Below are positions 2,402 to 59,174 of a DNA stretch of 64,000 nt, in pieces. The notes under the pieces are model-generated. The model searched no databases. It worked only from the letters and a program-made list of their open reading frames with translations, and was not told the origin of the DNA. Each line of letters opens with the position of its first letter. Position 1 is the first letter of the stretch. The stretch lies in the IMG/VR virus record IMGVR_UViG_3300037418_001301, positions 1 to 64,000 of that record; one strand, written 5' to 3'. This stretch comes from a virus. Taxonomy: Duplodnaviria > Caudoviricetes. Made by a program: the position numbers and the translations under genes.

Positions 2402-3435
2402 CAGCGCACCTTTGCGATTTCAGTTACAGTGATCCCCGGTATATTCGTTCGCCCAGCATCCAGCGCACGTTGCGCAAGCTGTCGCAGAAGTGTGCGGCAT
2501 TCTTCATGGCTGGACATATAGACGGCGAGCGCAGGCCAGTCCGTCACCTGATCGACAACGACGGTTGCCTTGACGGACGCGGCCTTGCCGTAAGAGGCGC
2601 GAATGGATGTCGGCGCGGCGACGGTGAGCGGCTCGGGAACTGGTGCAGCAATCGGCTCAGGATCGCCGCTGACAGGCGCAGCGGCAAGCGCGGCCTCTTG
2701 CTGCTTGCGCAGATCTTCTTGCTGCCTGCGCTCTTCCTCGCGCCGCTGGCGAAGCTTTTCTGTCTCCCATGCCTCCATCGCGGCTTTGACTTTGTCAGCC
2801 CCGGCTTTGGCGTTCTTTACAAGCGGCATCCATGTCTTGTCGATCTTCGTGCCGGCGTCGAGGTGCGGGCGTTTCAAGGCGTCTCTTTTTTTGTCCGCCT
2901 CGCCGGATAGCTCGTTGAGCCGGTTGCGAAGTGACTGAGCCTTTGCCGCCGTTTCGTCGTCGGTGATCTTGGCATAGGCATCTATGCCCTTAATCGCCGC
3001 GTCGATCTGATCCTTGAGTTTTTCAGACTCGTCCACTTCGCCGGAATTGTCACCGATCGTCGGCGCTGGCGGCGCGATCTGTGCGGCAACGACAGCATCG
3101 TCATCTGGCCAGCCCTTGCCTTCGAGGGCGTCTACATATGCTTTGTGTGTCACGGGCTGCCGGCAGGCCCACGTGAAAAGTTCAGGGATGTCATCAACCG
3201 GCCTATTATCGCGATAGGCGACCGTGCGACCTTCTGCGTCCGGATAAATGCCGACAGGCTCCCACGCGCCACCCTTGCGGCGAACTCGGTAGTAACCAAG
3301 CTGATATTCGCCGGGATGAACCGGCAGCGATGCCGAGCCGACTGCAGATGGATTCGCCAATGCTCCGAAATACCACTGCCAACGCTCAATAATGGCGACC
3401 TGTGTAATGTCGCCAGCTTTGATTGCTTCGTTCAT
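2401..3435 (-). CDS. Hypothetical phage protein with coiled-coil centre
   Basis: 344-aa ORF with SD (GGAGGA), next to bet. Confidence 0.7.
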   Translation of the reverse strand: MNEAIKAGDITQVAIIERWQWYFGALANPSAVGSASLPVHPGEYQLGYYRVRRKGGAWEPVGIYPDAEGRTVAYRDNRPVDDIPELFTWACRQPVTHKAYVDALEGKGWPDDDAVVAAQIAPPAPTIGDNSGEVDESEKLKDQIDAAIKGIDAYAKITDDETAAKAQSLRNRLNELSGEADKKRDALKRPHLDAGTKIDKTWMPLVKNAKAGADKVKAAMEAWETEKLRQRREEERRQQEDLRKQQEAALAAAPVSGDPEPIAAPVPEPLTVAAPTSIRASYGKAASVKATVVVDQVTDWPALAVYMSSHEECRTLLRQLAQRALDAGRTNIPGITVTEIAKVR

Positions 3436-4208
3436 CCGTTCCTCCTATTGCGTCCCGTTTTGATGGCGCTGATAGTCGTCTTGGCAACTCCATATTCGGA
3501 AGCCAGATCGACGCCGCGCTCGCCGCGGGAAAGCCTGGTTTTGATTCTGGAAACTTCTTGGCTGGTGAGTCTGCTCTTGTAGTGAGACTCGCCGAAGTAG
3601 GGATGGTATTCGGGGTCATCGTAGACGATGCGATCAGCACTAACGATGCCGTCAAGGTGCTTCCAAGTCCGGCCAGTGATTGCGCCCCATGCAGTATTTT
3701 TAGCGACACCAGTGGCTTTGATGATAGTTCCAAATGATGTGCCTTCACCTGCCATCCTTCGGATTTCCTTGACCAAATCACTGGTTAGGACTGATTTTCC
3801 AGAGTTCTCGCCGATTGCTGGCCTCATTCGTCCACGGCGCCATGCGTCCGCTACATTGTCGATCGGCAAGCCGCGCACTAGGTGATCAGGGTTGACGCAA
3901 CATCTCAAATCGCATCTGTGCCTGACGACGAAGCCAACCGACGATCCGTCTCCGTTGGCAGATTCGTAGCTAGTACGGTGCGCTGAATAGACTTTTTGTT
4001 TGAGGGTGAAATTGCCGTACCCGTCAGCCCCAGTTGCTCCGATCCATAACCAGCATCCGCTCATTGGCTCTTCAATGTATCGGTGGAAATATCGGCTATG
4101 AAAATCAGGAATGAAGGACGGAGTTTTTGCTACACCGCAGAACGCATCGCCAGCAACTTTGTCGACTAAATCCAGAGCCAGCGCGCCGATTGAAACAGCT
4201 TCATTCAC
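3432..4208 (-). CDS. Free-standing HNH (His-Me finger) homing endonuclease
   Basis: GCWLW...GYG...AHR.SY...VRHRCD...CVNPDHL...N; two C-terminal GE..KS.LT..V..I DNA-binding repeats; GTG start. Confidence 0.88.
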   Translation of the reverse strand: MNEAVSIGALALDLVDKVAGDAFCGVAKTPSFIPDFHSRYFHRYIEEPMSGCWLWIGATGADGYGNFTLKQKVYSAHRTSYESANGDGSSVGFVVRHRCDLRCCVNPDHLVRGLPIDNVADAWRRGRMRPAIGENSGKSVLTSDLVKEIRRMAGEGTSFGTIIKATGVAKNTAWGAITGRTWKHLDGIVSADRIVYDDPEYHPYFGESHYKSRLTSQEVSRIKTRLSRGERGVDLASEYGVAKTTISAIKTGRNRRNG

Positions 4209-10332: not shown

Positions 10333-10596
10333 ATGATCTCCATTGGGAGTGAAAGCATGCTGAGACGAAACTTTTTGGCCGGGCTAGCGTCGTCTACAAT
10401 CGCCGTTCCCGTCCGCGAAACATCAAACAAGCGGTTGCGTGATGCGTTAGACAATCTGAAGCTGGCACTCATGAGCGATCCGTCAATAGGAAATTTTGAG
10501 GTTCACTACAATCCTCACTCCCCGACCGTCGTAGTCATCGCTGCATTTCGAAATACGCTAGCCGGTGCGTCCGAGGAGGACGGCCACAACATTTAG
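10333..10596 (+). CDS. Hypothetical protein with twin-arginine-like N-terminus
   Basis: MLRRNFLAGLASS from the ATG at 10357. Confidence 0.5.
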   Translation: MISIGSESMLRRNFLAGLASSTIAVPVRETSNKRLRDALDNLKLALMSDPSIGNFEVHYNPHSPTVVVIAAFRNTLAGASEEDGHNI

Positions 10597-10902
10597 GATT
10601 TCCTGCTGCCTCTCGGGCGGCGCTTTAGCCAATTGATCCTGGATGCTCCAGATGGCCGATTTCATGGTCGGGTCGCGCATGAGCAAATCGGCCGGCTCAC
10701 AGTTAAGCGCGTCGGCAATCGCCTCAAGCATCGGCTGGCTGTAACCCTGCTTCCCATTTTCAAGTTGTGAGATCGATGAGACAGCGACATCGAGGCGGCT
10801 GGCAAGCTGCTCTTGCGTTAGCCCGCGATGCTTTCGCCACTGGCGGATAAAATGCCGTGGGCGATCGTCGCCTTTGAGGTTGGTTTTCACTCGCGTTCCC
10901 AT
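10558..10902 (-). CDS. cI: CI-like XRE repressor
   Basis: IRQWRKHRGLTQEQLASRLDVAVSSISQLENGKQ; divergent from a cro-like gene; no S24 peptidase domain. Confidence 0.85.
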   Translation of the reverse strand: MGTRVKTNLKGDDRPRHFIRQWRKHRGLTQEQLASRLDVAVSSISQLENGKQGYSQPMLEAIADALNCEPADLLMRDPTMKSAIWSIQDQLAKAPPERQQEILNVVAVLLGRTG

Positions 10903-10944
10903 GATTCTATTTTCGCACCTGCAAAAAAATCACTCCATAGCGCC

Positions 10945-10990
10945 TGACTGATATTTTTCGCTTGACTGAATTTCGTTTTGACTGAATATA
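10945..10990 (+). promoter_or_regulatory. PR-like promoter/operator array
   Basis: TGACTGA at 10945, TTGACTGAA at 10962 and 10978; TTGACT-N17-AATATA upstream of the cro ATG. Confidence 0.65.
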
Positions 10991-10996
10991 GGGGGC

Positions 10997-11200
10997 ATGG
11001 AAAAGCTCAGAGAATTCTTCAAGGCAAATCGCGGGATGCAGTCGAAGCTTGCAGAGCTTCTGAATTTGCAGCCATCAACGATATCCCAGTGGAAGTCTGT
11101 TCCGGTGGAGCATTTGCCGGAAGTAGAGGCATTCACGGGCATTCCTCGCGAAGAGCTTTTGCCGGACGCGTTCCGGGTCGCTCGGGAGGATGCGGCATGA
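10997..11200 (+). CDS. cro: Cro-like regulator
   Basis: KLAELLNLQPSTISQWKSVP...EAFTGIPREELLPD; divergent from cI. Confidence 0.8.
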   Translation: MEKLREFFKANRGMQSKLAELLNLQPSTISQWKSVPVEHLPEVEAFTGIPREELLPDAFRVAREDAA

Positions 11201-11760
11201 GTAAGCGCAATGGACATGATAGGTACGTCTATTTCATTCGCCAAGTCGGTGGCGTCGGCCCGATCAAGATAGGCTGCTCGCGTAACGTCGGCGAGCGCCT
11301 CGAAAATCTCATGATCTGGTCTCCGATGCCTCTCGAAGTTCTTGCTGCCGCGCCGGGCGGCTACAAGCTTGAGCGCAACATTCAGGAATGCTTCGCTGAT
11401 CTTTTCAGCCACAAGGAATGGTTCCATCCGGGCGAGCGGCTTTTGAAAGCCATAGCCGACTTGGCGAGCGGCGTTCCGCTGCATGAGGCTGTCAATCTCA
11501 ACGAACGTCGCGGCAGGGCATCGTCTCTCCCAAGAGTTTTGCCGGGGACGGAAGGTCGTCGCAGTTATGTGATGAGGATGGTCTGGGCGGAGAAGAAACT
11601 TCCCCGCAATTTCGAAGTCCCTGGTTGGGCCTGGGAACCGTTGAGGAGATGGATGCGTCATGGCGCGTCACACCCGCCAACAGAGGCGCAAATCGCGCTG
11701 ATAGAGAAATTTCTCTCAGACCCGCTGGCACATGCCGTGGAAAGGAAGGTGGCAGCATGA
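11197..11760 (+). CDS. GIY-YIG-like (T5orf172/MUG113) protein
   Basis: YVYFIRQ...PIKIGCS.NV.ERL...LE......F......EWF. Confidence 0.8.
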   Translation: MSKRNGHDRYVYFIRQVGGVGPIKIGCSRNVGERLENLMIWSPMPLEVLAAAPGGYKLERNIQECFADLFSHKEWFHPGERLLKAIADLASGVPLHEAVNLNERRGRASSLPRVLPGTEGRRSYVMRMVWAEKKLPRNFEVPGWAWEPLRRWMRHGASHPPTEAQIALIEKFLSDPLAHAVERKVAA

Positions 11761-12698
11761 GCAATTTTGCAGACGTGAAAGTTATCCAAAGTGCAGAAGG
11801 AAATGTTTCCAAATACGTGTTCAGCAATGAACGCGGGGTTGCCGAGTCCGTCCTCTATCGCTACCCAGATTACCAGACGCGGACGGTGATTTGCTGCTCG
11901 ACCATGAGCGGATGTCCAGTTGGTTGCCGGTTCTGCGGCGCGGGCGATTACTTCGTTCGCAACTTCTCGCCTGCCGAGATCGTGGAGCAGGTTGATCGGT
12001 GCATCGCCGATACTGGCGTAGATCCAGCCACCATGAAGCGCCTGCAGATTATGTTCATGAGCATGGGCGAGCCGCTGCTGAACAAGGGCGGCATGATTTT
12101 CGCTCTCAAGACGCTGTACGAGCGCTACCCGAACGCTGCGCTGCTCATCTCCACCATCGGCCCGGATATCGATTATTCGTGGGTGCATGCGATTAGCAAG
12201 GAAATCCCGATGATCGGGCTGCAGTTCAGCATCCATGAATCGACGGATGAAGAGCGGGACGAACTGATCCCGTTCAAAAAGAAGCTGTCGATCAGCGCCA
12301 TCGCGAGGGTAGGCGAGTTTTGGAACGCCGCGACGAAGCGCAAGCCGTTCTTCAATTATTGCGCAGGCGATGACAATTCTTCGGATGAAGACGCTGAACG
12401 CATCCTCATGGACTTCAACCCCGCTGTCTGGAACGCCACCGTTTCCGTCATCTGCGAGCGCAACGAAGGCATGCCAGCGCGCAACGAACATCAGGTGGAG
12501 TTGGCAGCCAACTTCGCAAGCAAGCTCGTCCAGCGCGGCTATGACGTCCGCGTGTTTGATCCTGCAGGTCAGGATGACATCGGAGGCGGCTGCGGCCAAC
12601 TGTGGTTCGTCCAGAAGTGGATGCAGGATCACCCGGAACTCGCAAAGCCTAGCGTAGGTCATGGCTTGCCCTCCGTGCATACCCCGGAGGCAGCATGA
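11757..12698 (+). CDS. RlmN/Cfr-family (class A) radical SAM methyltransferase-like protein
   Basis: ICCSTMSGCPVGCRFC (CxxxCxxC), MSMGEP, LQFSIH...RDELIP, DIGGGCGQL. Confidence 0.9.
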   Translation: MSNFADVKVIQSAEGNVSKYVFSNERGVAESVLYRYPDYQTRTVICCSTMSGCPVGCRFCGAGDYFVRNFSPAEIVEQVDRCIADTGVDPATMKRLQIMFMSMGEPLLNKGGMIFALKTLYERYPNAALLISTIGPDIDYSWVHAISKEIPMIGLQFSIHESTDEERDELIPFKKKLSISAIARVGEFWNAATKRKPFFNYCAGDDNSSDEDAERILMDFNPAVWNATVSVICERNEGMPARNEHQVELAANFASKLVQRGYDVRVFDPAGQDDIGGGCGQLWFVQKWMQDHPELAKPSVGHGLPSVHTPEAA

Positions 12699-14019: not shown

Positions 14020-14523
14020 ATGGCTCACACGCTCAGGCCTATACCTGCCAAGATGCTTGCAGTCCTGAAGTACGATCCCGCGTCCGGCGCAATTATTAGA
14101 ATTGCCGGACCAAGGAACGCAAAATTGGGATGCCGTATGGACGCGATCGGCAGTCATGGCTACCGGAGGGTGAGAATTTGGGGATATCCTTATGCCGCTC
14201 ACAGAGTTGCCTGGTTTCTGCACTTCAAAGAGCAGCCGCCATCTCTGATAGATCATATTAACGGAGATAAATCCGATAATAGAATTACCAATCTGAGGTC
14301 TGCTAACTACGCGCAAAACAAGGCAAATTCCGGTCTGCAGAGAAATAATACTTCTGGGTTCAAGGGTGTTACTTGGAACAAGGCGAGCGAAGGGTGGCAA
14401 GCTCAATTCAAGACTAACAAAAAATGCCATTATCTTGGCATCTTCGATACTCCAGAAGAGGCCAATGCTGCATACGAAACAGCACTCAAGCATCATCTCG
14501 GAACGTTTGAGAGGGTTTTCTGA
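14020..14523 (+). CDS. HNH endonuclease with AP2 domain
   Basis: AHRVAW...IDHINGDKSDNRITNLR...N, then SGFKGV.W...WQAQ...YLG.F.TPEEA. Confidence 0.9.
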   Translation: MAHTLRPIPAKMLAVLKYDPASGAIIRIAGPRNAKLGCRMDAIGSHGYRRVRIWGYPYAAHRVAWFLHFKEQPPSLIDHINGDKSDNRITNLRSANYAQNKANSGLQRNNTSGFKGVTWNKASEGWQAQFKTNKKCHYLGIFDTPEEANAAYETALKHHLGTFERVF

Positions 14524-15135: not shown

Positions 15136-15648
15136 ATGGGCTTCGGCCTTTCTCGTAATGCCCGGAGTGTCTTGACGATGGTCAAGGTAACAAGGGCGCA
15201 AAAAATGTGGCGGTCAAAAACCCACTTAAATTTGGTCAAAAAGAACGAGGCAACGCAGATGGTTTACGTAGACGCGATTGGCCCCGGCGGAGAAAGCAGG
15301 GCGCAGCAATACGCAAAGAAGTTGTTCCAACTCAGGAACAAAGGGTGGGGCGACGAGCCAGAGGCGCTCAAGGAAGTAGCCACGCGAAGTCGCGTTTCAC
15401 CACGCAGTTTCAAGCGCATCATGAAGGGCGAGGTAGAGGCTAAGGAAAGCATCGGCGCCCGCATCAGGAATGCCTATCTCGCATATTGCGCCGAACTCGT
15501 ATCGCGTCTCCAGCATGAAATTGAAGTCGAACAAAAGGTCCACGGCGATGCTGCTGATTTTCAAGATCTGGGCGAAGAGGTGGAAATTCTGGCTCGCAAA
15601 ATTGAAGCGGCGCGGAAGCGCCAAGCCCCCAAAGAAGGACAGCGCTGA
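15136..15648 (+). CDS. Putative HTH regulator (CII-like position)
   Basis: HTH-like segment EALKEVATRSRVSPRSFKRIMKGE plus a coiled coil; start uncertain. Confidence 0.55.
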   Translation: MGFGLSRNARSVLTMVKVTRAQKMWRSKTHLNLVKKNEATQMVYVDAIGPGGESRAQQYAKKLFQLRNKGWGDEPEALKEVATRSRVSPRSFKRIMKGEVEAKESIGARIRNAYLAYCAELVSRLQHEIEVEQKVHGDAADFQDLGEEVEILARKIEAARKRQAPKEGQR

Positions 15649-16238
15649 TGACGTGCGCAGTTCAGGGATGTGAAAAGGCGGCCAAGGTAAAAGGATGGTG
15701 CAATCCACATTATCAGCGATGGATCAGGCATGGCGACCCTGTCGGGGGAAGAACGGCTCAAGGAGAACCGTTGAAATTCCTCCAAGATGTCGTCCTCGCC
15801 TATAAAGGCGACGATTGTTTGATCTGGCCATATGTCAAAAATCAAGACGGCTACGGACAAATGAAGGTCCGCGGCAAGATGGAGACGGTGTCGCGCATAG
15901 TTTGCGAGATCGCGCATGGAATGCCTCCGAGTCCTAATCACGAAGCCGCCCATAGTTGCGGCAATGGGGACAAGGGCTGCTGCACTCAAGAACATTTGCG
16001 ATGGGCAACGACCAAGGAGAACTTCGCCGACCGTCTAAAGCATGGAACCTATACTCGTGGCGAGCGGCATCCGATGGTGAAGCTCACAGAGGCAGACGTT
16101 CATGAGATTAGGCGTCTGCGAGGTTCAGGCGTGCCGCTTTCGGATCTCGCCGACAGGTTCTCGGTGACTAATGTAACGATTAGCCAGATCGCCCGACGAA
16201 AGACATGGATATGGCTTGAAGAGGAAAGGATTATCTGA
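15648..16238 (+). CDS. HNH homing endonuclease
   Basis: C..GC...GWC..HY zinc motif; DDCLIWP...GYG...SR...AAHSCGNG..GC...HLRWAT..EN. Confidence 0.88.
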   Translation: MTCAVQGCEKAAKVKGWCNPHYQRWIRHGDPVGGRTAQGEPLKFLQDVVLAYKGDDCLIWPYVKNQDGYGQMKVRGKMETVSRIVCEIAHGMPPSPNHEAAHSCGNGDKGCCTQEHLRWATTKENFADRLKHGTYTRGERHPMVKLTEADVHEIRRLRGSGVPLSDLADRFSVTNVTISQIARRKTWIWLEEERII

Positions 16239-50189: not shown

Positions 50190-50992
50190 TTGATACCAGC
50201 GCGCTTTCTGCGCTTCTCTCCGGCTATAACAGCCAGACGCCGGCCATTGCTCCGCCCACTGTGGCGCCGACAGCGACCACAAATCCGTTTGCCAAGTTCG
50301 CAGGCTTGTTCAATGGCGATACCAACTTGGGCGATTACGCTCAAAAGGTCGGCATGGGCCTGTCCAACATGAGCAGCACGGGTGGCGATCCATATCTTGC
50401 CTTTGCGCAAGGATTTGGCGGCACTGCGAAGTTCACCACGGCAGAACAGGCAGCTGCGGCTGCAGCAAAGCAAAAAGAGATCGACAACGCCATTGCTGCG
50501 AACAAATTGGCGATGGATCAGAACCAGTTCGACGCTCGACTAGGGCAGGATCAATCGCAGTTCAATCAGCGGATGGGGCAGGATCAGAGCCAATTCGACA
50601 CTCGCCAGACACAGCAGGCATCGGAATCGGATCGTGACTATGCCCTGAGGCAAGCCGCAGACAAGCGCCAGCAGATGCTTGCCGATCAAGAAGTCAAGAA
50701 GTCCGCAGCCGAGATCGAGCGCATGGCGCGCGGCAATGGGATCACGGTTGATCAACAGCTTCAGATCGAGCGCATCGCGCAGGCTGCGGCTGAGAACATC
50801 GTTGACCCGGAAGAGCGCAAGAAGACCGTTGATGCAGAGCGTCAGCGCCTGACGGACCAATTCAAAACCGGCGATACCAGTCTCAGCAACGGGCCTGGTG
50901 TTTCCGCGCAGGAACAGCAGCCGATGACAGCAACTGGCCCGAATGGCGAAAAGCTCGTTCTCAAGAACGGGCAGTGGGTACCGCTCCAATAA
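50186..50992 (+). CDS. DNA ejection / internal virion protein
   Basis: Q/A-rich coiled coil; C-terminal TGPNGEKLVLKNGQWVP. Confidence 0.65.
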   Translation: MIDTSALSALLSGYNSQTPAIAPPTVAPTATTNPFAKFAGLFNGDTNLGDYAQKVGMGLSNMSSTGGDPYLAFAQGFGGTAKFTTAEQAAAAAAKQKEIDNAIAANKLAMDQNQFDARLGQDQSQFNQRMGQDQSQFDTRQTQQASESDRDYALRQAADKRQQMLADQEVKKSAAEIERMARGNGITVDQQLQIERIAQAAAENIVDPEERKKTVDAERQRLTDQFKTGDTSLSNGPGVSAQEQQPMTATGPNGEKLVLKNGQWVPLQ

Positions 50993-50993
50993 C

Positions 50994-53900
50994 ATGACAG
51001 ATCAAAGCTTGAACACGGTCGGCGCTACTCCGACCGATCTCCCGCCGTTGCCTGAAGGGTTCGCGCTCGACGTGCGCCCTGCTGCGCAGCCGGTAAAGGA
51101 GACGGTGAAGGATACGTTCAGCGTGCCGTCGCTGCCGGATGGATTCAAGCTCGACCAGCCGTCCGCTTCGCCTGTTGGTGATTTCAAGGGCGTTGTCGAG
51201 CGTGGCAACATCGACCTCACCAAGCGTCCCGTTGTAAAGAACGACGATGGTACGATCAGCACCGTCCGTTCCATGTCGTTCGAGGAAAACGGCAAGGAAA
51301 TCCTCGTTCCGACCGTGAGCGATGATGGCAAAATCCTCACCAATGATGAGGCGATCAACCAATACCACAAGACGGGCAAGCATCTTGGCGTCTTCGACAA
51401 TGCAGATGATGCCACGGCCTACGCACAGGCTCTGCATGATGCGCAGGACGCGCACTACAGTGCCGCAAATCCAAAGCCTGTGAATAACGCCCCGGTCGAA
51501 CAGCAGATGGAGGACTTCGTCAAGAAGCAGCGCAAGGCTGGCACGCTTGGGACGACCGATAGCCTAGACAAGAACACCGTCAATTTCGCGAAAGGATTGG
51601 GCGAAAACATCGTCAAGCTGGAAGGCTCGGCAGTTCGCGGCATGTCGTTGTTGCCTGGAAATGACCCGGTTGATGATTTTATCTATTGGCTCACAGGCAA
51701 GGAAAAGCCTGCCAATTATCCAACGCCAGAACGGGTGAACAAAGCCACCCAAGAAGTGGCGAAGCAGATGGAGAATGTCGATTTCGGGTTTGATCCCGGC
51801 GACACATGGGAGGACGTGAAAAAGGCCCCAGCCTCAAAATTCATTCCGTGGGCACTGAAGAACGGCTTGCTATCCGCTCCTGATATGGCTGCCATGATGG
51901 TTTCATTCCCTGGTTATGCGGCGGTAAGGGCGGGATCATTGGCCCAACAGCGCGCGCAAAATGACCAGCGCGAGAATGCGACCGTTGGGGATATGCTTGT
52001 TGCCCTACCTGCATCGACAGCATCAGCTCTGCTTGATCGCATCGGTGCCAAGGGAATGTTTGGCATTGATGAAGCCGCAGTCCAAAGCATGAAGCAACTG
52101 CTGAAGGAAGGCGGAAAAGCAGCGACGAAAGAGGGAACGACCGAAGCTGCGCAGCAAGTTATTGAAGATGTTGCCACGGACGCTGGCACAAAGAAGGGCT
52201 TTGACCCGAAACGGACGGCCGAGAATGCCTTGGCTTCGTTCGTTGGCGGCTCGGTGTTTGGCGGTGTTACTCGTGGTGTTGAAGGCGCAACGGAACTCAA
52301 CGCGCATGCCAAGACCGGCAAGGTAGGTGCCTCCGATCTACCCCCACTCCCAGAGGGCTTCACCCTCGATCCTACAATTCAGAAAACCGACCGTTTGCCT
52401 CAAGAAGGCAAGCAGGGCGAAACGGTTGAGACGTCCGTCCTCCCCGGCCAGGCTCCCGTAACGCGAGACGGCAGCGAGGAGAAGGTTTCGCCTCCCGAAT
52501 CCTTGCTGCCGTCCATCTCTCCTGAGGAAAGGGCTATTCTCCGCCGCACTTCCATCCCAGACGAAGATATCGATGCGATGTCGCGGCCGGAGATTGAGCA
52601 AAAGGTTGCCGAGGCCCGCGCCGCCAATATCAAAGTCAACCCGGCGATGATCAACAAGGCGGCTCAATACAGCCCGCCAGAAGCGGTCACGCCTGCGGAC
52701 GCCGCACAGCCGCCATTGATCGCAGAAGCCACTCCTGAACGTCCTGTGGCTGAAAGCGTGCCCATCCCGGAAGCGCGGCCGGTTTTGTCTCCCGAGGATG
52801 AGGCGGCACTTCAGGATGCGACGAAACAATCCGTGGCCGAAGACCGGCAAGCACAGATCGACCGTGCGGTAAATCCCGAAGTTCAGCAGCAACTTGCAAA
52901 AACCGTTCAAGACCAACTTGAGCAGGATCGCAATCAGGCCGCTGATCAAGCGCTGGCTTATGCCGAGCCCGATCTTTCGAAGGCCGTCCAGCAGTCGGTT
53001 GATGAGGATTTGAAAGGCGATGGAACACGGCAGTCTCCTGTTGTCGTCCAGCAACCGGCCCATATCGATGTCGCTGCTCAGCAGGTCAATACCGAGCCTA
53101 GCGATGCCCAAAGAGAGGCAAACAATTACAAGCACGGTCACATCAAGATTTCTGGGATCGACATAACGCTTGAGAACCCGAAAGGTTCTTTGCGATCTGG
53201 CGTCTCCCCGAAAGGCGAACGCTGGCAAGTCGAAATGCCAGCCCATTATGGGTATGCAAAGGGCTCTGTGGGACGAGATGGCGATCAGGTAGATACCTAT
53301 ATCGGCGATAACCCGCAGTCCAAGCGAGTCTATGTCATCGACCAGAAGGATTTGAACACTCGCAGGTTTGATGAGCACAAGGCGGTGCTTGGCGTCAATT
53401 CCGTCACTGAGGCGCGTGATCTCTATGCGCGTGGCTTCTCCGATGGCATGGGTGCAGACCGCATCGGCGGCATTACCCCGATGACCATTTCCGAATTCAG
53501 GAAATGGCTGGCATCGGATGAAACCACCAAGCCGCTCGCCATGGGCAAGCCGAAGGTCCGCACCAACGAAGAAGGCTTCCCGATCGACATCAATGGCAAC
53601 GTCAAGAAGCCCGACAGCCTTATTGAATTTCTCGCCCGCAAAGGTGGCGTCCGCGAGGATCATGGCGAACTCTCCGTTCTTGGCCTTCGTGACCGCAAGA
53701 GCGGGTTTGTCGTCGGCGCTGGACCACTGATCCGCCGTAACGGCATGACAGTGGACAAGGCGCGTGAGGCCGCTGCCGAGGCCGGCTACCTGCCCATGGT
53801 GTCTTCACTCAAGGATTTCTACGATGCGCTGGATCAGGACGCCCGGTCAGGTCGACAGGTTTTTTCGCAGTATGACGATGACCACGCGGCTCGCTGGCGT

Positions 53901-56900
53901 GAAGCGCAAGGCGGAGAAGCAAGAAAAGCAGAAGAAGACGCCTCCCGTAGCGAAGCCTACGACCGCCTGAAAGCAGACGGTTTCCCGGTTGACGAAGGCG
54001 CGGACTACGTCGATCGTGTCGCCGCACACATGGCCAATGGTCAAACCTACGAAGATGCGGTAGAGTTGGCATACCAGAACATCGGTGCGGAACAGCCAGA
54101 AGTCGCCGATATCCCGTTCTTCGGAGAAGACGTAAATGAAACTGTCGCCGGAACAGCACCTGTCGATCGTGCGCCAAGTCGAGCAGAAGGCGAACGCGAC
54201 CAACGATCCATCGATTCAAGCTCAATTGAAGCGGATCGCCAAACTGGGCAGGTTCGTGGCGAAGGTGGGCCGGAAGTATCGGGCAGCCGAGGCGAGCAAG
54301 ACGGCGGACGCGGCGATCAGCAAGGCACGGCTCAGCGCGAAAAGTCTCAGCCGCAAGAGCCTGTAGCCGAGCGCGGCGCTCTTCCGTCCGGATTCACGAC
54401 ATCGATGGGTTCGACGTATACCGTTCATGAGGACGGCACAACTACCCGCGACAAGGCCGCTCGAAGCACTCCCGGCCATGAAGGCGACAGCGGGCTAAAG
54501 GCTCGAACCGAAAAGACCATTTACACGGATGCGAATGCTGGCGCACTGAGCGCGGCGGGCCTGACGTTTGCCCCCGGCAGCAAGGGCGCGCGTGTAGTCA
54601 TCAGGAATGGCAAGGCATCGCTCGCTACATGGAACGTGAAGGAAAACCGTTGGGGCGTTTCCGAGGGTAGCCGTGATATCCAGTTCTTCAATGAGCCTGC
54701 GGTTGGCCGCTACCCGTTGGAACTCTGGAAGTCTGCGGATGATGTTCCCGGTTACGAAGCCTATGCGAAGATGCATGCCGGCAACAAGATCACAGAGATT
54801 TCCAGTGGCAAGGAGCCCGTAAGCGAAGCCGGAGCAGACAACAAGCAGCAACTCGTCATTCCCGGAGCAGAGCGAGCCTCTGACGCGACTATGGCTCAAC
54901 GCGGGGCAGATGCCGCCCTCAAGCCAAAGGTCGCGCAGAAGGAGCCCGCTGGGCTGTTTAGCGATGAGCGGAACCAGGGCGACTTGCTGGATTTGGCGAA
55001 GAAGCCAGCTCAGCGCGAGGAAGCTAAGGTTGAGCCCGCAGAGCCGGAAGCCAAAGCCGCCACGTCGGAAGAGCCAAAGAAGCTTGTCCCGCCGTCAGTC
55101 GTCTATCACGGCACGTCAACAGGCGGATTCGATGCCTTCGACACATACCAGGGCAAATACGGCCTATTCGGTAGCGGTGGCTATTTCACCGAAGATCCAA
55201 ACATCGCGCTCGAATACACCCGCAAGGGCAGGGGCGAGAAGCCGACGGTCTATTCCGCCAAACTCAATGTCAAAAACGCGTTGGACATGGACGCCAAGGC
55301 CGATGTTGCGGCTTGGGAGAAAGCGTTCCCAGACCATTTCGACCCGGATAACCTTCCCGAGAATGCCACCAACGAGCAGGCCTATCGCGAAGTCGAAGAA
55401 ATGCTCTCGCAGGATATGATCCCTGACTACGAGGGCGCCGAGACCATGCAGGACGGCGTTCAGAGCATGGGTTATGACGCCATCACGCATATCGGTGGTG
55501 GTCGTCACAAGGCTTCCAAAGGTACGAAGCACCGTGTTTGGATCGTGTTTGATCCTGAACAGGTCACCAATTTCAAGGAAGAGGAACGGCATTATTCGGC
55601 AAATCCAGCCGGCTGGGATACCGCTGGCGAAATGGACGCCAAGCCGCTGCTCTCGAAAGCCGATCAGCGGGAACTCGTAGATATCGTCCGCACCACGGCT
55701 GGCCTCGACCCCGAATTTGTCGATACGATCAAAATCCCCGAAGGTGGCGCAAAGGGTTGGGGCAATCTAAATTCTTCAACGGCAGCCGGCGCTTACAGCC
55801 CGATGCGCGATATCGTCACGCTTGCGCTCGACAGCGCGACCAAAAAATCCGCCCAACACGAATCCTTCCATCGCCTTCAAAACCTGTTCCTCACCGAAAA
55901 AGAGCGCAGGGTTCTGAAAGCAGAAGAGCCTCGCCTGCGGAAGATGATTGCCGACAGCACTACCTACGGGCAAGATGTTGCCGCCAAGATGAGCCGCAAG
56001 GAAGTCGAAGCGGAAGCCTACGCCATGTGGGCAACAGCGAAGAAAAAGCAGGAATCCGCGCCGAAAATCCATATCGCGCTGCGCAAAGCGTGGAACAGCA
56101 TTGCCACCATGCTTGAGCGCGTCCGCAATTACCTCAATGGGCGTGGTTTCCAGACTTTGGAGGACGTGTTTGGCAAGGCGAAAACGGGTGAGATTGCCAA
56201 GCGCCCAAAGCGCCAAAGCCAGAGCACTGATACGCAATATGCGATCACGGACGAGCGCGGCCCTGTTGCCGAACCGGATACCGGCACCGTCACTCCAGGC
56301 GCTGCCATCGGCACCCGTATCAACGATTATCTCAACGCCGCCAGCAAGGCGCTTGCCTCAAAGATCAAATCCAAGGGCAGCCGTTTTGATCGCTCAACAG
56401 CAGAAGACGGAGAAACCACCGCCCAGCTCGCGCACCGCAAGATCGTGGACTATCTCTCCCCGGTAAAGCAGATGCAGGAGAAGGTTGGCGGCAACCTCAA
56501 TGATCTGGCAAACGCCTATCAGACGGCTCGGCTGGCGGAAGGAACGATCCGCCACGAAATCCACCAGATCGATGACAAGTACGTAACGCCTGCCGTTGAT
56601 GCACTGGCAGCCGTAGGAGCATCACTGGAGGACTTGCACAAGTACATGTACGCCATGCACGTCCCGGAGCGTAACCGTGTCGTAGGGCTGCGCAATGGTG
56701 AGGAAGGCAAGCAGATCGAATTTTCGGAAGTTGATGGAACGTGGAAGATCGGTAGCGGGCCGGTAAGTGACGGGAAACGGGAGCAGTTATTCCGTGCAGC
56801 TACTGACCCAACTGTCCGCGGCGCGTCTGGTATGTCCACCAATGAGGCAAAGGACATCATCCGCGAACTCTCCCAAGATCGTGAAAAGTTCATGGGCATC

Positions 56901-59174
56901 CGCCGTGCGGCCTCGCATATCCGCGCCATGCTCGACAACTCGCTTGAGACGCAGCTCAAGAACGGCCTAATCAACAAGGAAACCTATGACCGCCTGACAA
57001 GCCAATGGCAGAACTATGTTCCGCTCCGCGCCGAAAGCGATGAGGACGGCGTAGGCGGCTCGTTCCCGTCCAAGTCTCGCGGCTTCGATGTCCGCGGCGA
57101 CGAATTCAAGGGCGCAACGGGAAGATTCACGCCGGCTGACAACGTTGTGGTCTACTCCATCAACAACGCCGAGCAGAGCGTTATTCGTGGCGAAAAGAAC
57201 AAGGCTGCCACCGCAGCGCTGCGCTTCATCAACCAGTTCGATCCAAAGGGCGAAAACATCGCACAGGTCTATTGGTCAGATCAGCCGGAGCAGTTGGGCG
57301 ATATCACCAAGGCCCCGGCCGTTTATCGCCGGGTGATCGGTTCGGATGGCAAGGTTACTCAGCGCAAGGTCAATGACTTCCAGATGCGTGACGATGTCTT
57401 GGCCGCAAAGGTGGGCGGAAAGACGTACTACATGCGCTTTGCCGACCCCAAAGTGGGCTTGGCGCTCAAGAAGATGACGTTCTCGGAATTGGGTGTTGCG
57501 CTCAAACTGGTAAAGACCGTCTCCAACTGGCAATCGCTTATCAACACCAGGGCGAATCCGGCTTTCATCCCTCTCAACCTAATCCGCGACGTTCAGACCG
57601 GCGCTACTCTGGCCCTTTCAAAGGGCTTCAGCACGGGCGAGATAGCCAAGACCGTCGGCAATATCCCGAATGCTTGGGGCGCTCTCTGGCGTCATGCTCG
57701 TGGCAAAGAAGGCAATGGCGTCTGGGATACCCGCTTGCAGGACTTCATGTCAGCCGGCGGCAAGATTTCCTTTGATCAATACAATTCGATCGAAGACACC
57801 CTCAAGAAATTGCAAAAGGACGTGGCACGGCGCACGGGCGGCAGCAAGCCGAAAGAGGCATGGAATGCCGTCGTCAAGCTGGTTACGGATCTGAACGACA
57901 CGATCGAGAACGGCATGCGCCTGGCCGTCTTCAGTGCCAGCCGAGCACGGGGAGATACGTCTAAACAGGCAGCATTCCTCGCTCGTGACCTCACCGTCGA
58001 TTTCCAGAAGAAGGGCGAAATCGCGCCGAGCATGAATGCGCTCTACACCTTCTTCAATGCATCGGTGCAGGGCAATTATAACTTCGCCAAAGGCTTGGTC
58101 CGGTCACGCAAGGTCCGCGCCGCGATGATGGGCCTGATCGTTGCCGGCTATGCGCAGCATCTCTGGAACCTCGCCATGGCCGGCGATGACGACGATGGCG
58201 AGAATGCCTACAAGAAAATGCTCCGCAATGAGCCGTGGAAGTTCGAACGGCAGATGGTGTTCTTCCTGCCTGGTCGAAAGGATTACATCACGATCCCACT
58301 CGGTTTCGGGCTCAACGCCTTCTGGCATCTCGGGGTAGAGGGCGGCGCGGTGACTTCTGGAGTAAAGGGTTTCCTGCCTGCTGCGCTCGATAGTACCCGC
58401 GTTGCCTTCGATGCATTCAATCCGCTCGGCTCTGGTGGATGGGTTGGCATGGTGCTGCCATCGATCATCGACCCGATCTGGGAACTTGGCACCAACCAGG
58501 ATTTCACGGGGCGACCGATCTATCCGAGCGAAAACCAGTTCGACCCGGCACCGCCCCCGAAAAGCGAGCAGGCGTTCAAATCTACCGCCCCAGCCTTCAA
58601 GGTTGCAGCGAAAACGCTCAACAGCCTTACGGGCGGCAACGACAAGGAACCAGGCGCGGTCGATGTCTACCCGGACTCGCTCGAATATCTCTGGGGCTGG
58701 TTTTCTGGCGGCTTGGGCCGGTTTGTCTCTCAGTCCGGAGAAACCGCGCAACGCGCTGTCAATCTGGAGTTCGAGCCCAAAAAGACGCCATTCATCCGCT
58801 CTTTCTATGGCGAGACGGACGACCAGACCCATCGCGCCGAATACTACAACGAGCGCGAACGGGTCCAATACGCCGCTGGCAAGATGAAAGAATATGAGGA
58901 TGCCGGGAACAAGGAAGACACGGCTAATTTCTTGGCAAGCCACAAGCAGGACCTTGATTCCGCCTATGCATTCGAACAGGCCGAAAAGCAGCGCAAAAAG
59001 ATCAACAAAGAGCGCCGCCAGCTCGAAAAGTCGAAAATGCCGCAGGATAAGATCGACAACGAGTTAGATCGCCTGAACGATCTTGAACTTGAAATCATGG
59101 ACGACGCCCGCAAGGAGTATTTCAAGGCTCAGCAGAAAGCCGCAGCGAAGGATCAATTGCAACAAGCGCAGTGA
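50994..59174 (+). CDS. Giant polyvalent virion protein (PPase-like, ADP-ribosyltransferase-like, HExxH metallopeptidase, LPD38-like)
   Basis: ENPKGS.RSG...HYGY..G..G.DGD.VD; VYHGT...G.G.YFTED...IVFDPEQV; HESFH; C-terminal YITIPLGFGLN. Confidence 0.85.
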   Translation: MTDQSLNTVGATPTDLPPLPEGFALDVRPAAQPVKETVKDTFSVPSLPDGFKLDQPSASPVGDFKGVVERGNIDLTKRPVVKNDDGTISTVRSMSFEENGKEILVPTVSDDGKILTNDEAINQYHKTGKHLGVFDNADDATAYAQALHDAQDAHYSAANPKPVNNAPVEQQMEDFVKKQRKAGTLGTTDSLDKNTVNFAKGLGENIVKLEGSAVRGMSLLPGNDPVDDFIYWLTGKEKPANYPTPERVNKATQEVAKQMENVDFGFDPGDTWEDVKKAPASKFIPWALKNGLLSAPDMAAMMVSFPGYAAVRAGSLAQQRAQNDQRENATVGDMLVALPASTASALLDRIGAKGMFGIDEAAVQSMKQLLKEGGKAATKEGTTEAAQQVIEDVATDAGTKKGFDPKRTAENALASFVGGSVFGGVTRGVEGATELNAHAKTGKVGASDLPPLPEGFTLDPTIQKTDRLPQEGKQGETVETSVLPGQAPVTRDGSEEKVSPPESLLPSISPEERAILRRTSIPDEDIDAMSRPEIEQKVAEARAANIKVNPAMINKAAQYSPPEAVTPADAAQPPLIAEATPERPVAESVPIPEARPVLSPEDEAALQDATKQSVAEDRQAQIDRAVNPEVQQQLAKTVQDQLEQDRNQAADQALAYAEPDLSKAVQQSVDEDLKGDGTRQSPVVVQQPAHIDVAAQQVNTEPSDAQREANNYKHGHIKISGIDITLENPKGSLRSGVSPKGERWQVEMPAHYGYAKGSVGRDGDQVDTYIGDNPQSKRVYVIDQKDLNTRRFDEHKAVLGVNSVTEARDLYARGFSDGMGADRIGGITPMTISEFRKWLASDETTKPLAMGKPKVRTNEEGFPIDINGNVKKPDSLIEFLARKGGVREDHGELSVLGLRDRKSGFVVGAGPLIRRNGMTVDKAREAAAEAGYLPMVSSLKDFYDALDQDARSGRQVFSQYDDDHAARWREAQGGEARKAEEDASRSEAYDRLKADGFPVDEGADYVDRVAAHMANGQTYEDAVELAYQNIGAEQPEVADIPFFGEDVNETVAGTAPVDRAPSRAEGERDQRSIDSSSIEADRQTGQVRGEGGPEVSGSRGEQDGGRGDQQGTAQREKSQPQEPVAERGALPSGFTTSMGSTYTVHEDGTTTRDKAARSTPGHEGDSGLKARTEKTIYTDANAGALSAAGLTFAPGSKGARVVIRNGKASLATWNVKENRWGVSEGSRDIQFFNEPAVGRYPLELWKSADDVPGYEAYAKMHAGNKITEISSGKEPVSEAGADNKQQLVIPGAERASDATMAQRGADAALKPKVAQKEPAGLFSDERNQGDLLDLAKKPAQREEAKVEPAEPEAKAATSEEPKKLVPPSVVYHGTSTGGFDAFDTYQGKYGLFGSGGYFTEDPNIALEYTRKGRGEKPTVYSAKLNVKNALDMDAKADVAAWEKAFPDHFDPDNLPENATNEQAYREVEEMLSQDMIPDYEGAETMQDGVQSMGYDAITHIGGGRHKASKGTKHRVWIVFDPEQVTNFKEEERHYSANPAGWDTAGEMDAKPLLSKADQRELVDIVRTTAGLDPEFVDTIKIPEGGAKGWGNLNSSTAAGAYSPMRDIVTLALDSATKKSAQHESFHRLQNLFLTEKERRVLKAEEPRLRKMIADSTTYGQDVAAKMSRKEVEAEAYAMWATAKKKQESAPKIHIALRKAWNSIATMLERVRNYLNGRGFQTLEDVFGKAKTGEIAKRPKRQSQSTDTQYAITDERGPVAEPDTGTVTPGAAIGTRINDYLNAASKALASKIKSKGSRFDRSTAEDGETTAQLAHRKIVDYLSPVKQMQEKVGGNLNDLANAYQTARLAEGTIRHEIHQIDDKYVTPAVDALAAVGASLEDLHKYMYAMHVPERNRVVGLRNGEEGKQIEFSEVDGTWKIGSGPVSDGKREQLFRAATDPTVRGASGMSTNEAKDIIRELSQDREKFMGIRRAASHIRAMLDNSLETQLKNGLINKETYDRLTSQWQNYVPLRAESDEDGVGGSFPSKSRGFDVRGDEFKGATGRFTPADNVVVYSINNAEQSVIRGEKNKAATAALRFINQFDPKGENIAQVYWSDQPEQLGDITKAPAVYRRVIGSDGKVTQRKVNDFQMRDDVLAAKVGGKTYYMRFADPKVGLALKKMTFSELGVALKLVKTVSNWQSLINTRANPAFIPLNLIRDVQTGATLALSKGFSTGEIAKTVGNIPNAWGALWRHARGKEGNGVWDTRLQDFMSAGGKISFDQYNSIEDTLKKLQKDVARRTGGSKPKEAWNAVVKLVTDLNDTIENGMRLAVFSASRARGDTSKQAAFLARDLTVDFQKKGEIAPSMNALYTFFNASVQGNYNFAKGLVRSRKVRAAMMGLIVAGYAQHLWNLAMAGDDDDGENAYKKMLRNEPWKFERQMVFFLPGRKDYITIPLGFGLNAFWHLGVEGGAVTSGVKGFLPAALDSTRVAFDAFNPLGSGGWVGMVLPSIIDPIWELGTNQDFTGRPIYPSENQFDPAPPPKSEQAFKSTAPAFKVAAKTLNSLTGGNDKEPGAVDVYPDSLEYLWGWFSGGLGRFVSQSGETAQRAVNLEFEPKKTPFIRSFYGETDDQTHRAEYYNERERVQYAAGKMKEYEDAGNKEDTANFLASHKQDLDSAYAFEQAEKQRKKINKERRQLEKSKMPQDKIDNELDRLNDLELEIMDDARKEYFKAQQKAAAKDQLQQAQ

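Follow-up and report, generated by a model that had tools for sequence, protein, structure and literature searches.

The gene considered here encodes P0001 and lies in a window of 64,000 nucleotides, the whole stretch of DNA that was analysed, which comprises positions 1 to 64,000 of the IMG/VR virus record IMGVR_UViG_3300037418_001301. It is a stop-free open reading frame (ORF) of 313 amino acids at window positions 11757 to 12698 on the forward strand, and its translation carries the signatures of class A radical S-adenosylmethionine (SAM) methyl synthases, the enzymes to which RlmN and Cfr belong. Taken with its relatives, P0001 represents an undescribed, phage-spread variant of this class whose target is probably not RNA. 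There is about an even chance that it methylates a small nucleotide of the nicotinamide adenine dinucleotide (NAD) salvage network rather than ribosomal RNA (rRNA) or transfer RNA (tRNA).

To our knowledge, characterised class A radical SAM methylases are limited to RlmN and Cfr, each of which acts on RNA. RlmN is a housekeeping enzyme, a dual-specificity synthase that makes 2-methyladenosine (m2A) at position 2503 of 23S rRNA and at position 37 of tRNA. Cfr makes 8-methyladenosine (m8A) at A2503 of 23S rRNA and is a clinically important factor, common on plasmids, that makes bacteria resistant to phenicols, lincosamides, oxazolidinones, pleuromutilins and streptogramin A (PhLOPSA).

Fold, catalytic residues and RNA-contact surface

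The start of the P0001 gene is well supported: its ATG overlaps the stop codon of the upstream gene (ATGA), a Shine-Dalgarno-like AGGAAGGTGG precedes it, and homologues align from residue 1-6 onwards. The protein matches the NCBIfam model for RlmN, TIGR00048 (E 5.7e-26, 91.3 bits; curated cut-off 290), and the Cfr models NF000424 (E 3e-20, 72.9 bits; cut-off 530) and TIGR04432 (64.6 bits; cut-off 550), reaching none of the three cut-offs. It also matches Pfam Radical_SAM and, by sequence, the RlmN structure 6fz6 (E 8e-18). From an alignment of 85 sequences, AlphaFold gave a model with a predicted local distance difference test score (pLDDT) of 95.1, whose eleven best structural matches in the PDB are all RlmN or Cfr (E 2e-18 to 4e-13), led by 6FZ6 with a template modelling (TM) score of 0.73. 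RlmN (TIGR00048; PDB 3RFA, 5HR7, 6FZ6) is thus the best match in sequence as well as structure, and has in common with P0001 a partial TIM-barrel radical SAM core, the CxxxCxxC, GEP and SxH motifs, and a pair of cysteines, C118 and C355, that correspond to C46 and C279. Cfr (NF000424/TIGR04432; PDB 9P0P) has the same class A fold and cysteines. Model and sequence agree on a predicted RlmN/Cfr-type fold with class A methyl-synthase signatures, which bears out the original prediction in its fold, its cluster motif and its two mechanistic cysteines.

A residue alignment of 126 family rows with E. coli RlmN and Cfr places every class A signature that had been predicted (Table 1). C46, the putative resolving cysteine within ICCSTMSG, is a cysteine in 122 of the 126 rows, the three cluster ligands C53, C57 and C60 are cysteines in 125-126, and C279, which aligns to RlmN C355 and would carry the methyl group, is a cysteine in 123. 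The intact motifs and very strong conservation rule out a decaying gene.

Some relatives depart from this layout. P0271, P0272, P0273 and P0276, each of about 640 amino acids, contain an intein (LAGLIDADG/Hint domain) that sits exactly at the position of C60, the third cysteine of CxxxCxxC, which serves as the +1 residue of the C-extein. The divergent members P0143, P0160 and P0172 have lost the methyl-carrier cysteine, with GxGPGQ or ARGAGH in place of GGGCGQL, and in some the resolving cysteine is gone as well; since the methyl-carrier cysteine is missing, the RlmN mechanism is closed to this part of the wider family.

What P0001 lacks is the RNA-docking part of the RlmN architecture. The RlmN model, 355 positions in length, is matched over 70-343 only, and the Pfam scan found no RlmN_N domain (PF21016) in P0001; in the family alignment, residue 6 pairs with residue 81 of E. 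coli RlmN and residue 67 of Cfr. Because the match begins at model position 70, the N-terminal domain is absent, and the earlier description of a 313-residue protein without the usual N-terminal extension holds good.

The remaining surface was compared with lists of RNA-contact residues from a preprint that presents a Cfr crystal structure, an AlphaFold3 rRNA model and an RlmN-tRNA structure (bioRxiv 10.1101/2025.09.18.677109). For the ten basic residues by which Cfr contacts rRNA in the model, P0001 offers a basic counterpart at most once, at K196, a position that is variable in the family. Two of the ten belong to the missing N-terminal lobe, other positions are occupied by P37, W225 and V258, and the mapping of Cfr K98 and K283 is less sure because both adjoin alignment gaps. 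Relative to RlmN, R206/R207 are replaced by A127/A128, K332 by S255, and the trio beside the target base, R344/K345/R347, by F267/D268/A270. The replacements of R206, R207, R344, K345 and R347 predominate in the family, whereas S255 does not.

The pocket around the target base tells a similar story. Within 5 Å of the target adenine, the family keeps a near-invariant set of residues (Y34, Y36, V44, Q97, M99 and F267-D268-P269-A270), which differ from both RlmN and Cfr; where P0001 has FDPA, RlmN has R344-K345-T346-R347. Despite the low overall identity, these pocket mappings, FDPA included, are reliable because the flanking (L/I)STxG and DDIxxxCGQL motifs anchor them. Among the Cfr-type residues M95, Y97, W101, S103, D150, S151, S153, S328, Q329 and F330, only Y97 is the same in P0001 (as Y36), the others being different or gapped, and the Cfr residues near A2503 that are kept amount to two cysteines and one methionine. 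Besides this pocket, the family differs from RlmN in a WxVQxWM C-terminal tail. The charge differs as well: P0001 is acidic, with a net charge of -11 and an isoelectric point (pI) of 5.1 (family medians -5 and 5.7), compared with -1 and 6.6 for E. coli RlmN and +1 and 7.6 for Cfr.

With three cationic side chains swapped for aromatic, small and acidic ones, the pocket is a poor fit to a base held in a phosphodiester chain and would better fit a free, possibly cationic ring. Aligned residue by residue, the P0001 clade is seen to have shed the RNA-docking N-terminal domain together with most of the RNA-contact residues.

The P0001 clade and its linkage to NAD salvage genes

Relatives of P0001 number in the thousands, each of about 310 amino acids. 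Identity to metagenome homologues runs from 87% to 65% among the 119 matches listed. In cultured phages, homologues in Stenotrophomonas phages are 62% identical, and those in Salmonella phage Arash and in Vibrio and Aeromonas phages 47-51%. Species genomes gave 134 matching stretches, and the best 80 of these, kept as loci, come from Alpha- and Betaproteobacteria, Actinomycetota, Saccharibacteria, Bacillota, Bacteroidota and metagenome-assembled genomes (MAGs) of Methanobacterium and Woesearchaeota. P0001, a phage protein of the Rhizobium type, shares about 60% identity with members from Saccharibacteria and from a Methanobacterium MAG, and the closest cellular homologue found, at 85%, is a prophage copy in Rhizobium sp. 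AC27/96 (locus L088, P0003). A search of 72,556 plasmids returned no family member, only canonical rlmN and cfr at less than 32% identity.

Two trees, both of them quick searches, recover the P0001 family as one clade. Support by the Shimodaira-Hasegawa-like approximate likelihood ratio test (SH-aLRT) is 99 with a stem of 0.82 in a 159-row tree, and 96 with a stem of 1.55 in a 53-row tree under a site-mixture model. RlmN of E. coli and Sinorhizobium, Cfr and four full-length RlmN-like representatives lie on the opposite side of the family stem, and several other short RlmN-like groups fall between. In both trees Cfr groups with P0260, away from the P0001 family. The phylogeny that the original prediction proposed as a check on RlmN or Cfr membership thus puts P0001 inside neither clade; nor does it place P0001 in a characterised clade with a known non-RNA substrate, because the clade to which it belongs is itself uncharacterised. 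By its sequences the family is a separate, strongly conserved clade found mainly in phages and prophages. A Cfr-type resistance gene is ruled out by the absence of plasmid members, the wrong clade and the wrong pocket, and nothing suggests antibiotic resistance.

Canonical RlmN scoring above its cut-off is also present in four of the five bacterial genomes examined that carry the short gene, among them Rhizobium sp. AC27/96, and this coexistence rules out a replacement for a missing host RlmN. Unlike RlmN, then, the family is found in phages and NAD operons, and in most genomes tested it stands beside the canonical enzyme. Members bear public labels as varied as 'rRNA methyltransferase', '23S rRNA (adenine2503-C2)-methyltransferase', 'prohibitin family protein' and hypothetical; the second of these, a pipeline label, is probably wrong for the phage family. 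Stenotrophomonas phage BUCTxx99 and Xanthomonas phage JGB6 (OR529408.1 and OQ436456.1) hold family matches, 60-62% identical to the query, annotated as 'prohibitin family protein', which may be a misannotation in both records.

To survey the genomic neighbourhood of the relatives, 80 viral and 80 genome loci were fetched with up to 10 kb on each side. In the clustering, which covered 164 loci and 4136 products of crude ORF calls, BLASTP clusters were ranked by number of loci and the top ones annotated only afterwards. Seven neighbour clusters occur in viral as well as cellular loci, and each is made up of NAD genes: NrtR/NUDIX (24 loci), NAMPT/NAPRTase (20), PncA (11), NadE (9), NMNAT (7), glutamine-dependent NadE (6) and Prs (6). 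Phage genes confined to particular lineages, among them primase-helicase, YqaJ, SSB and Metallophos, make up the remaining frequent clusters. An RtcB cluster occurs in six loci, all viral, and no translation-related cluster is common to viral and cellular loci. There is no universal small partner gene, since neighbour clusters reach at most about 15% of loci.

Profiles built from these clusters were then used to count NAD genes in loci with at least 8 kb of flank. A NAD gene lies within 10 kb in 21 of 66 genome loci, with at least two kinds in 15 and direct adjacency in 11, and in 12 of 71 viral loci, with at least two kinds in 11. As an internal control, the density of NAD genes falls from 1.59 per 10 kb in the first kilobase from the gene to 0.12 at 8-10 kb. 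Gene order varies by lineage, and reading frames often overlap. With [gene] standing for the P0001 relative, the arrangements include NUDIX-NadE-[gene]-NMNAT-PncA on a 570-kb phage-like contig, NMNAT/NUDIX-[gene]...NAMPT on a 289-kb phage-like contig, PncA<[gene]>NrtR<NadE<NMNAT in Saccharibacteria, NAMPT-[gene]-NadE-NMNAT in a Bacillota MAG and [gene]-Prs-NAMPT in a Methanobacterium MAG. The linked loci span distant hosts, from Saccharibacteria, Actinomycetota and Bacillota to Methanobacterium and Woesearchaeota MAGs and jumbo phages. NAD-linked members are likewise scattered across the whole tree, from a Woesearchaeota MAG, 33% identical, on the deepest branch to the five-row clade of the query (L013, L004).

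Gene fusions point in the same direction. P0138, 44% identical to the query (E 1.6e-65), is a radical SAM enzyme with a C-terminal NUDIX domain, and its gene overlaps NAMPT and NMNAT genes in an operon of a phage-like contig. In P0209 (759 amino acids; locus L173, 724-3003), an HD/dGTPase-type phosphohydrolase domain is fused to a radical SAM domain that is distantly RlmN-like (33% identical). A fusion to PncA was also considered: a 520-residue bacterial cluster in a protein atlas combines an isochorismatase PncA-type domain with the same fold (TM 0.81), but it was unconfirmed by sequence and is kept as a lead only, and P0291, compared as a candidate for such a fusion, proved unrelated. Longer relatives of the operon-linked PncA are fusions to NAPRTase, NadE, NUDIX or QueG-like domains, none to radical SAM, and the longer forms of the query consist of the intein-bearing members and fusions of distant RlmN-like proteins, with no further NAD-enzyme fusion. 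The same PncA search turned up P0278, P0279, P0282, P0284 and P0289, in which a PncA domain is fused to QueG-like epoxyqueuosine-reductase domains (Fer4_16, DUF1730), an unexpected tie of a nicotinamide enzyme to an Fe-S/B12 fold of tRNA modification.

Phage NAD+ reconstitution pathway 2 (NARP2) consists of Nampt together with Nmnat/NUDIX (bioRxiv 10.1101/2024.02.11.579819). Relatives of P0001 are embedded in NARP2 and in bacterial NrtR-regulated operons, with frames that overlap NAMPT, NMNAT, NUDIX, NadE and PncA. In contrast, the published NARP1, NARP2 and NARP3 include no radical SAM enzyme or RlmN. A review of jumbo phages (PMC7824862) does not mention radical SAM or RlmN, and a literature search for radical SAM paired with NadV, NAMPT, NrtR or NAD salvage found no paper. 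A 2010 paper (PMC2836569), which does not mention phages, describes a third branch alongside RlmN and Cfr whose function is unknown; its text does not show whether the branch is the same as the P0001 family.

Candidate substrates

Counting the immune-signal variant discussed below, a small NAD-related target has even to slightly better than even odds. The chemistry would resemble that of RlmN. C279 would be methylated by one SAM, a second SAM would be cleaved at the C53/C57/C60 cluster, the resulting Cys-CH2 radical would add to an sp2 carbon beside a ring nitrogen, and C46 would resolve the adduct. Candidate sites are adenine C2 or C8, or the pyridinium ring, of NAD+, nicotinamide mononucleotide (NMN), adenosine diphosphate (ADP)-ribose or their derivatives. 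The adenine positions have precedent; attack on a carbon of the pyridinium ring in NAD+ or NMN is plausible on chemical grounds and would match the aromatic, acidic character of the pocket. NAD-linked and stand-alone members share their pocket residues, and on that ground they are assumed to share a molecular function. In a temperate phage, where the gene is alone in a cro-led early operon, the host would supply the salvage enzymes, and the phage could benefit in a contest over NAD+ with NAD-depleting (NADase-type) defence systems. The small-molecule substrate, methylation as the outcome and the anti-defence role are what we infer, rather than what was observed. More tentatively, the family may supply the first class A radical SAM methyl synthase whose substrate is a free nucleotide rather than RNA, by C-methylating NAD+, NMN, ADP-ribose or an immune signal derived from ADP-ribose.

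Several observations weigh against a NAD-related substrate. About two thirds of the genome loci and five sixths of the viral loci have no NAD gene within 10 kb, and the nearest relatives of P0001 (L008-L012, 76-79% identical), which are early-region genes of temperate-type contigs beside cI/cro-type regulators, have no NAD context. The NAD-gene profiles match nothing in the whole 75-kb record of this phage. In favour of the link, 19 of 50 viral records with the gene also hold a PF04095 gene somewhere in the genome, as do 10 of the 26 that are at least 90% complete, and published frequencies of about 1.1% of sequenced phages for NARP2 and 5.4% for NARP1 and NARP2 together give a scale for these figures. 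All 19 records, however, are large phages or incomplete records, PF04095 is absent from the complete small phages and proviruses among the 50, and the genome-wide figure is inflated because NAD genes are commoner in large phages than in small ones. The residue mapping depends on alignments of 22-27% identity and on the AlphaFold3 model of a preprint. One of the five genomes, a 1-Mb Saccharibacteria MAG, has the short form only and no canonical RlmN. Enzymes of the RlmN type are slow and spend two SAM per turnover, which argues against modification of the bulk NAD pool and makes it more likely that the target is scarce, for example a regulatory ligand, an immune signal or a side product. We know of no class A radical SAM methylase that acts on a free nucleotide.

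One line of evidence for RNA is the position of the gene in some phages. In the lytic Stenotrophomonas phage ANB28 (L007, 4732-10050), it lies inside a tRNA array, with tRNA genes for Ile, Pro, Leu and Thr upstream and Ser downstream, and this is the main context that still favours a role on RNA. tRNA genes fall within 19 of the 71 viral loci and RtcB within six, and in Salmonella phage Arash the gene is near RNA ligase genes. With the RlmN/Cfr fold, the full catalytic set and the Saccharibacteria genome that has the short gene in place of canonical RlmN, these contexts would suit a minimal RlmN-like RNA methylase that forms m2A or m8A on host or phage tRNA (A37), rRNA or another RNA. Such an enzyme could tune translation or shield RNA from anticodon nucleases, with another surface or a partner replacing the N-terminal domain. 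We consider this unlikely. The protein is acidic, has no N-terminal domain and has most RNA-contact basic residues replaced, including the R344/K345/R347 trio; canonical RlmN coexists in four of the five genomes; the window holds no tRNA gene, and RtcB profiles match nothing in the 75-kb phage. No translation-related cluster is common to viral and cellular loci, against seven NAD clusters, and the domains found fused to the enzyme are nucleotide hydrolases of the NUDIX and HD types rather than RNA-binding domains. The original prediction favoured rRNA A2503 and tRNA A37 as targets, and the lost RNA contacts and N-terminal domain, the low profile scores and the NAD-operon context of relatives leave that choice without support.

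A signal of host immunity, rather than NAD itself, would better accommodate a slow enzyme. By this purely inferential account, the targets are cyclic ADP-ribose isomers or histidine-ADP-ribose (His-ADPR) from Thoeris-type Toll/interleukin-1 receptor (TIR) proteins; methylation of an adenine carbon would inactivate or antagonise the signal, and the clustering with NAD genes would mark an anti-defence island. In temperate phages the gene stands alone in early operons, a common place for anti-defence genes, large phages link it to NARP2-type genes, and a low-abundance signal would suit a slow enzyme better than a millimolar NAD pool. No Thoeris component was seen linked to the gene, though no search was aimed at one. 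Since the gene also occurs in chromosomal Preiss-Handler/NrtR operons of Saccharibacteria, Actinomycetota and Bacillota, where anti-defence makes little sense, we regard this account as doubtful, and less probable than a role on RNA. C-methylation of adenines in phage DNA as protection from restriction is very improbable: phages use many DNA modifications and the gene of temperate relatives lies near SSB, YqaJ, primase-helicase and DnaB genes, but the protein is acidic and without nucleic-acid contact residues, the same highly conserved enzyme occurs in cellular NAD operons and in archaea, and C2- or C8-methyladenine is not known in DNA. The remaining probability falls to targets outside the NAD-related, RNA and DNA classes.

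The early operon of this phage and the wider family

The record as a whole is a 75,326-base contig that CheckV rates as 100% complete. When 24 kb of the window was compared by megablast with 50,697 phage records, no match was returned. Table 1 lists the gene, its motifs and the neighbouring control region. The P0001 gene is the third in a rightward operon led by a cro-like gene. It had been placed just after cro, but a T5orf172/MUG113-domain gene stands directly between the two, and that gene is not conserved as a neighbour in the loci of relatives outside this phage. The repeats between the cI-like and cro-like genes are of the TTGACTGA type and, as read from the sequence, are probably operators that overlap the early promoter of the operon holding the P0001 gene.

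Table 1. Positions in the window of the P0001 gene, its sequence motifs and the adjacent regulatory genes
Feature	Position	Strand	Basis
cI-like HTH_3 repressor, 114 aa, divergent from cro	10558..10902	-	Pfam
Three direct (C/T)TGACTGA(AT) copies, spaced 16-18 bp, cI-cro intergenic: CGCCTGACTGA / CGCTTGACTGAAT / TTGACTGAAT	10941..10987	.	repeat inspection
cro-like gene (YdaS/P22_Cro HTH, 67 aa), first in rightward early operon	10997..11200	+	Pfam, gene calls
T5orf172/MUG113-domain gene, 187 aa, in translational coupling with the P0001 gene	11197..11760	+	Pfam, gene calls
P0001 (313 aa), short class A radical SAM enzyme of RlmN/Cfr type that has no RlmN_N domain	11757..12698	+	profile, PDB, structure and alignment matches
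Codon of C46, counterpart of RlmN C118 / Cfr C105 (putative resolving Cys)	11892..11894	+	alignment; ICCSTMSG = residues 45-52
C53-x3-C57-x2-C60, predicted ligands of the radical SAM [4Fe-4S] cluster	11913..11936	+	motif, alignment
MSMGEP, residues 101-106; GEP SAM-binding motif as in RlmN/Cfr	12057..12074	+	alignment
F267-D268-P269-A270...D273-D274-I-G-G-G-C279-G-Q-L, putative methyl-carrier Cys loop	12555..12602	+	alignment; DIGGGCGQL = residues 274-282

Elsewhere, the phage has RecT and N6-type DNA methylase genes to the left, DnaB further to the right and an SU10-type portal gene. Several HNH genes in the early region look like homing-endonuclease genes: the gene at 14020-14523 (+) matches PHROG 99 (HNH endonuclease) and HNH_3 with a weak AP2 match, the gene at 3432-4208 (-) combines HNH_3 and HTH_7, and the ORF at 15648-16238 (+) reads as HNH-like from its sequence only. 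Among the late genes, a 2743-residue ORF at 50943-59174 (+) encodes a polyvalent protein with an 'InPase' pyrophosphatase domain (PF18823) and LPD38, of the kind described in conjugative elements and phages.

Genes of a NARP2-type pathway do not occur in this phage. Without NAD genes of its own the phage must find the enzyme useful alone, and its copy is an ordinary, stand-alone member of a family in which the main interest lies. The conflict between phage and host over NAD+ is now a central theme, as NARP1, NARP2 and NARP3 illustrate, and the identity of the substrate would reveal either a new NAD-related metabolite or reaction, or a new form of RNA recognition without the usual domain. If the target is NAD-related, an unknown radical reaction would be added to NAD metabolism, and phages would have, in addition to resynthesis and sponges, a chemical means of weakening immunity directed at NAD. 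One early gene would then be enough for a temperate phage of this sort.

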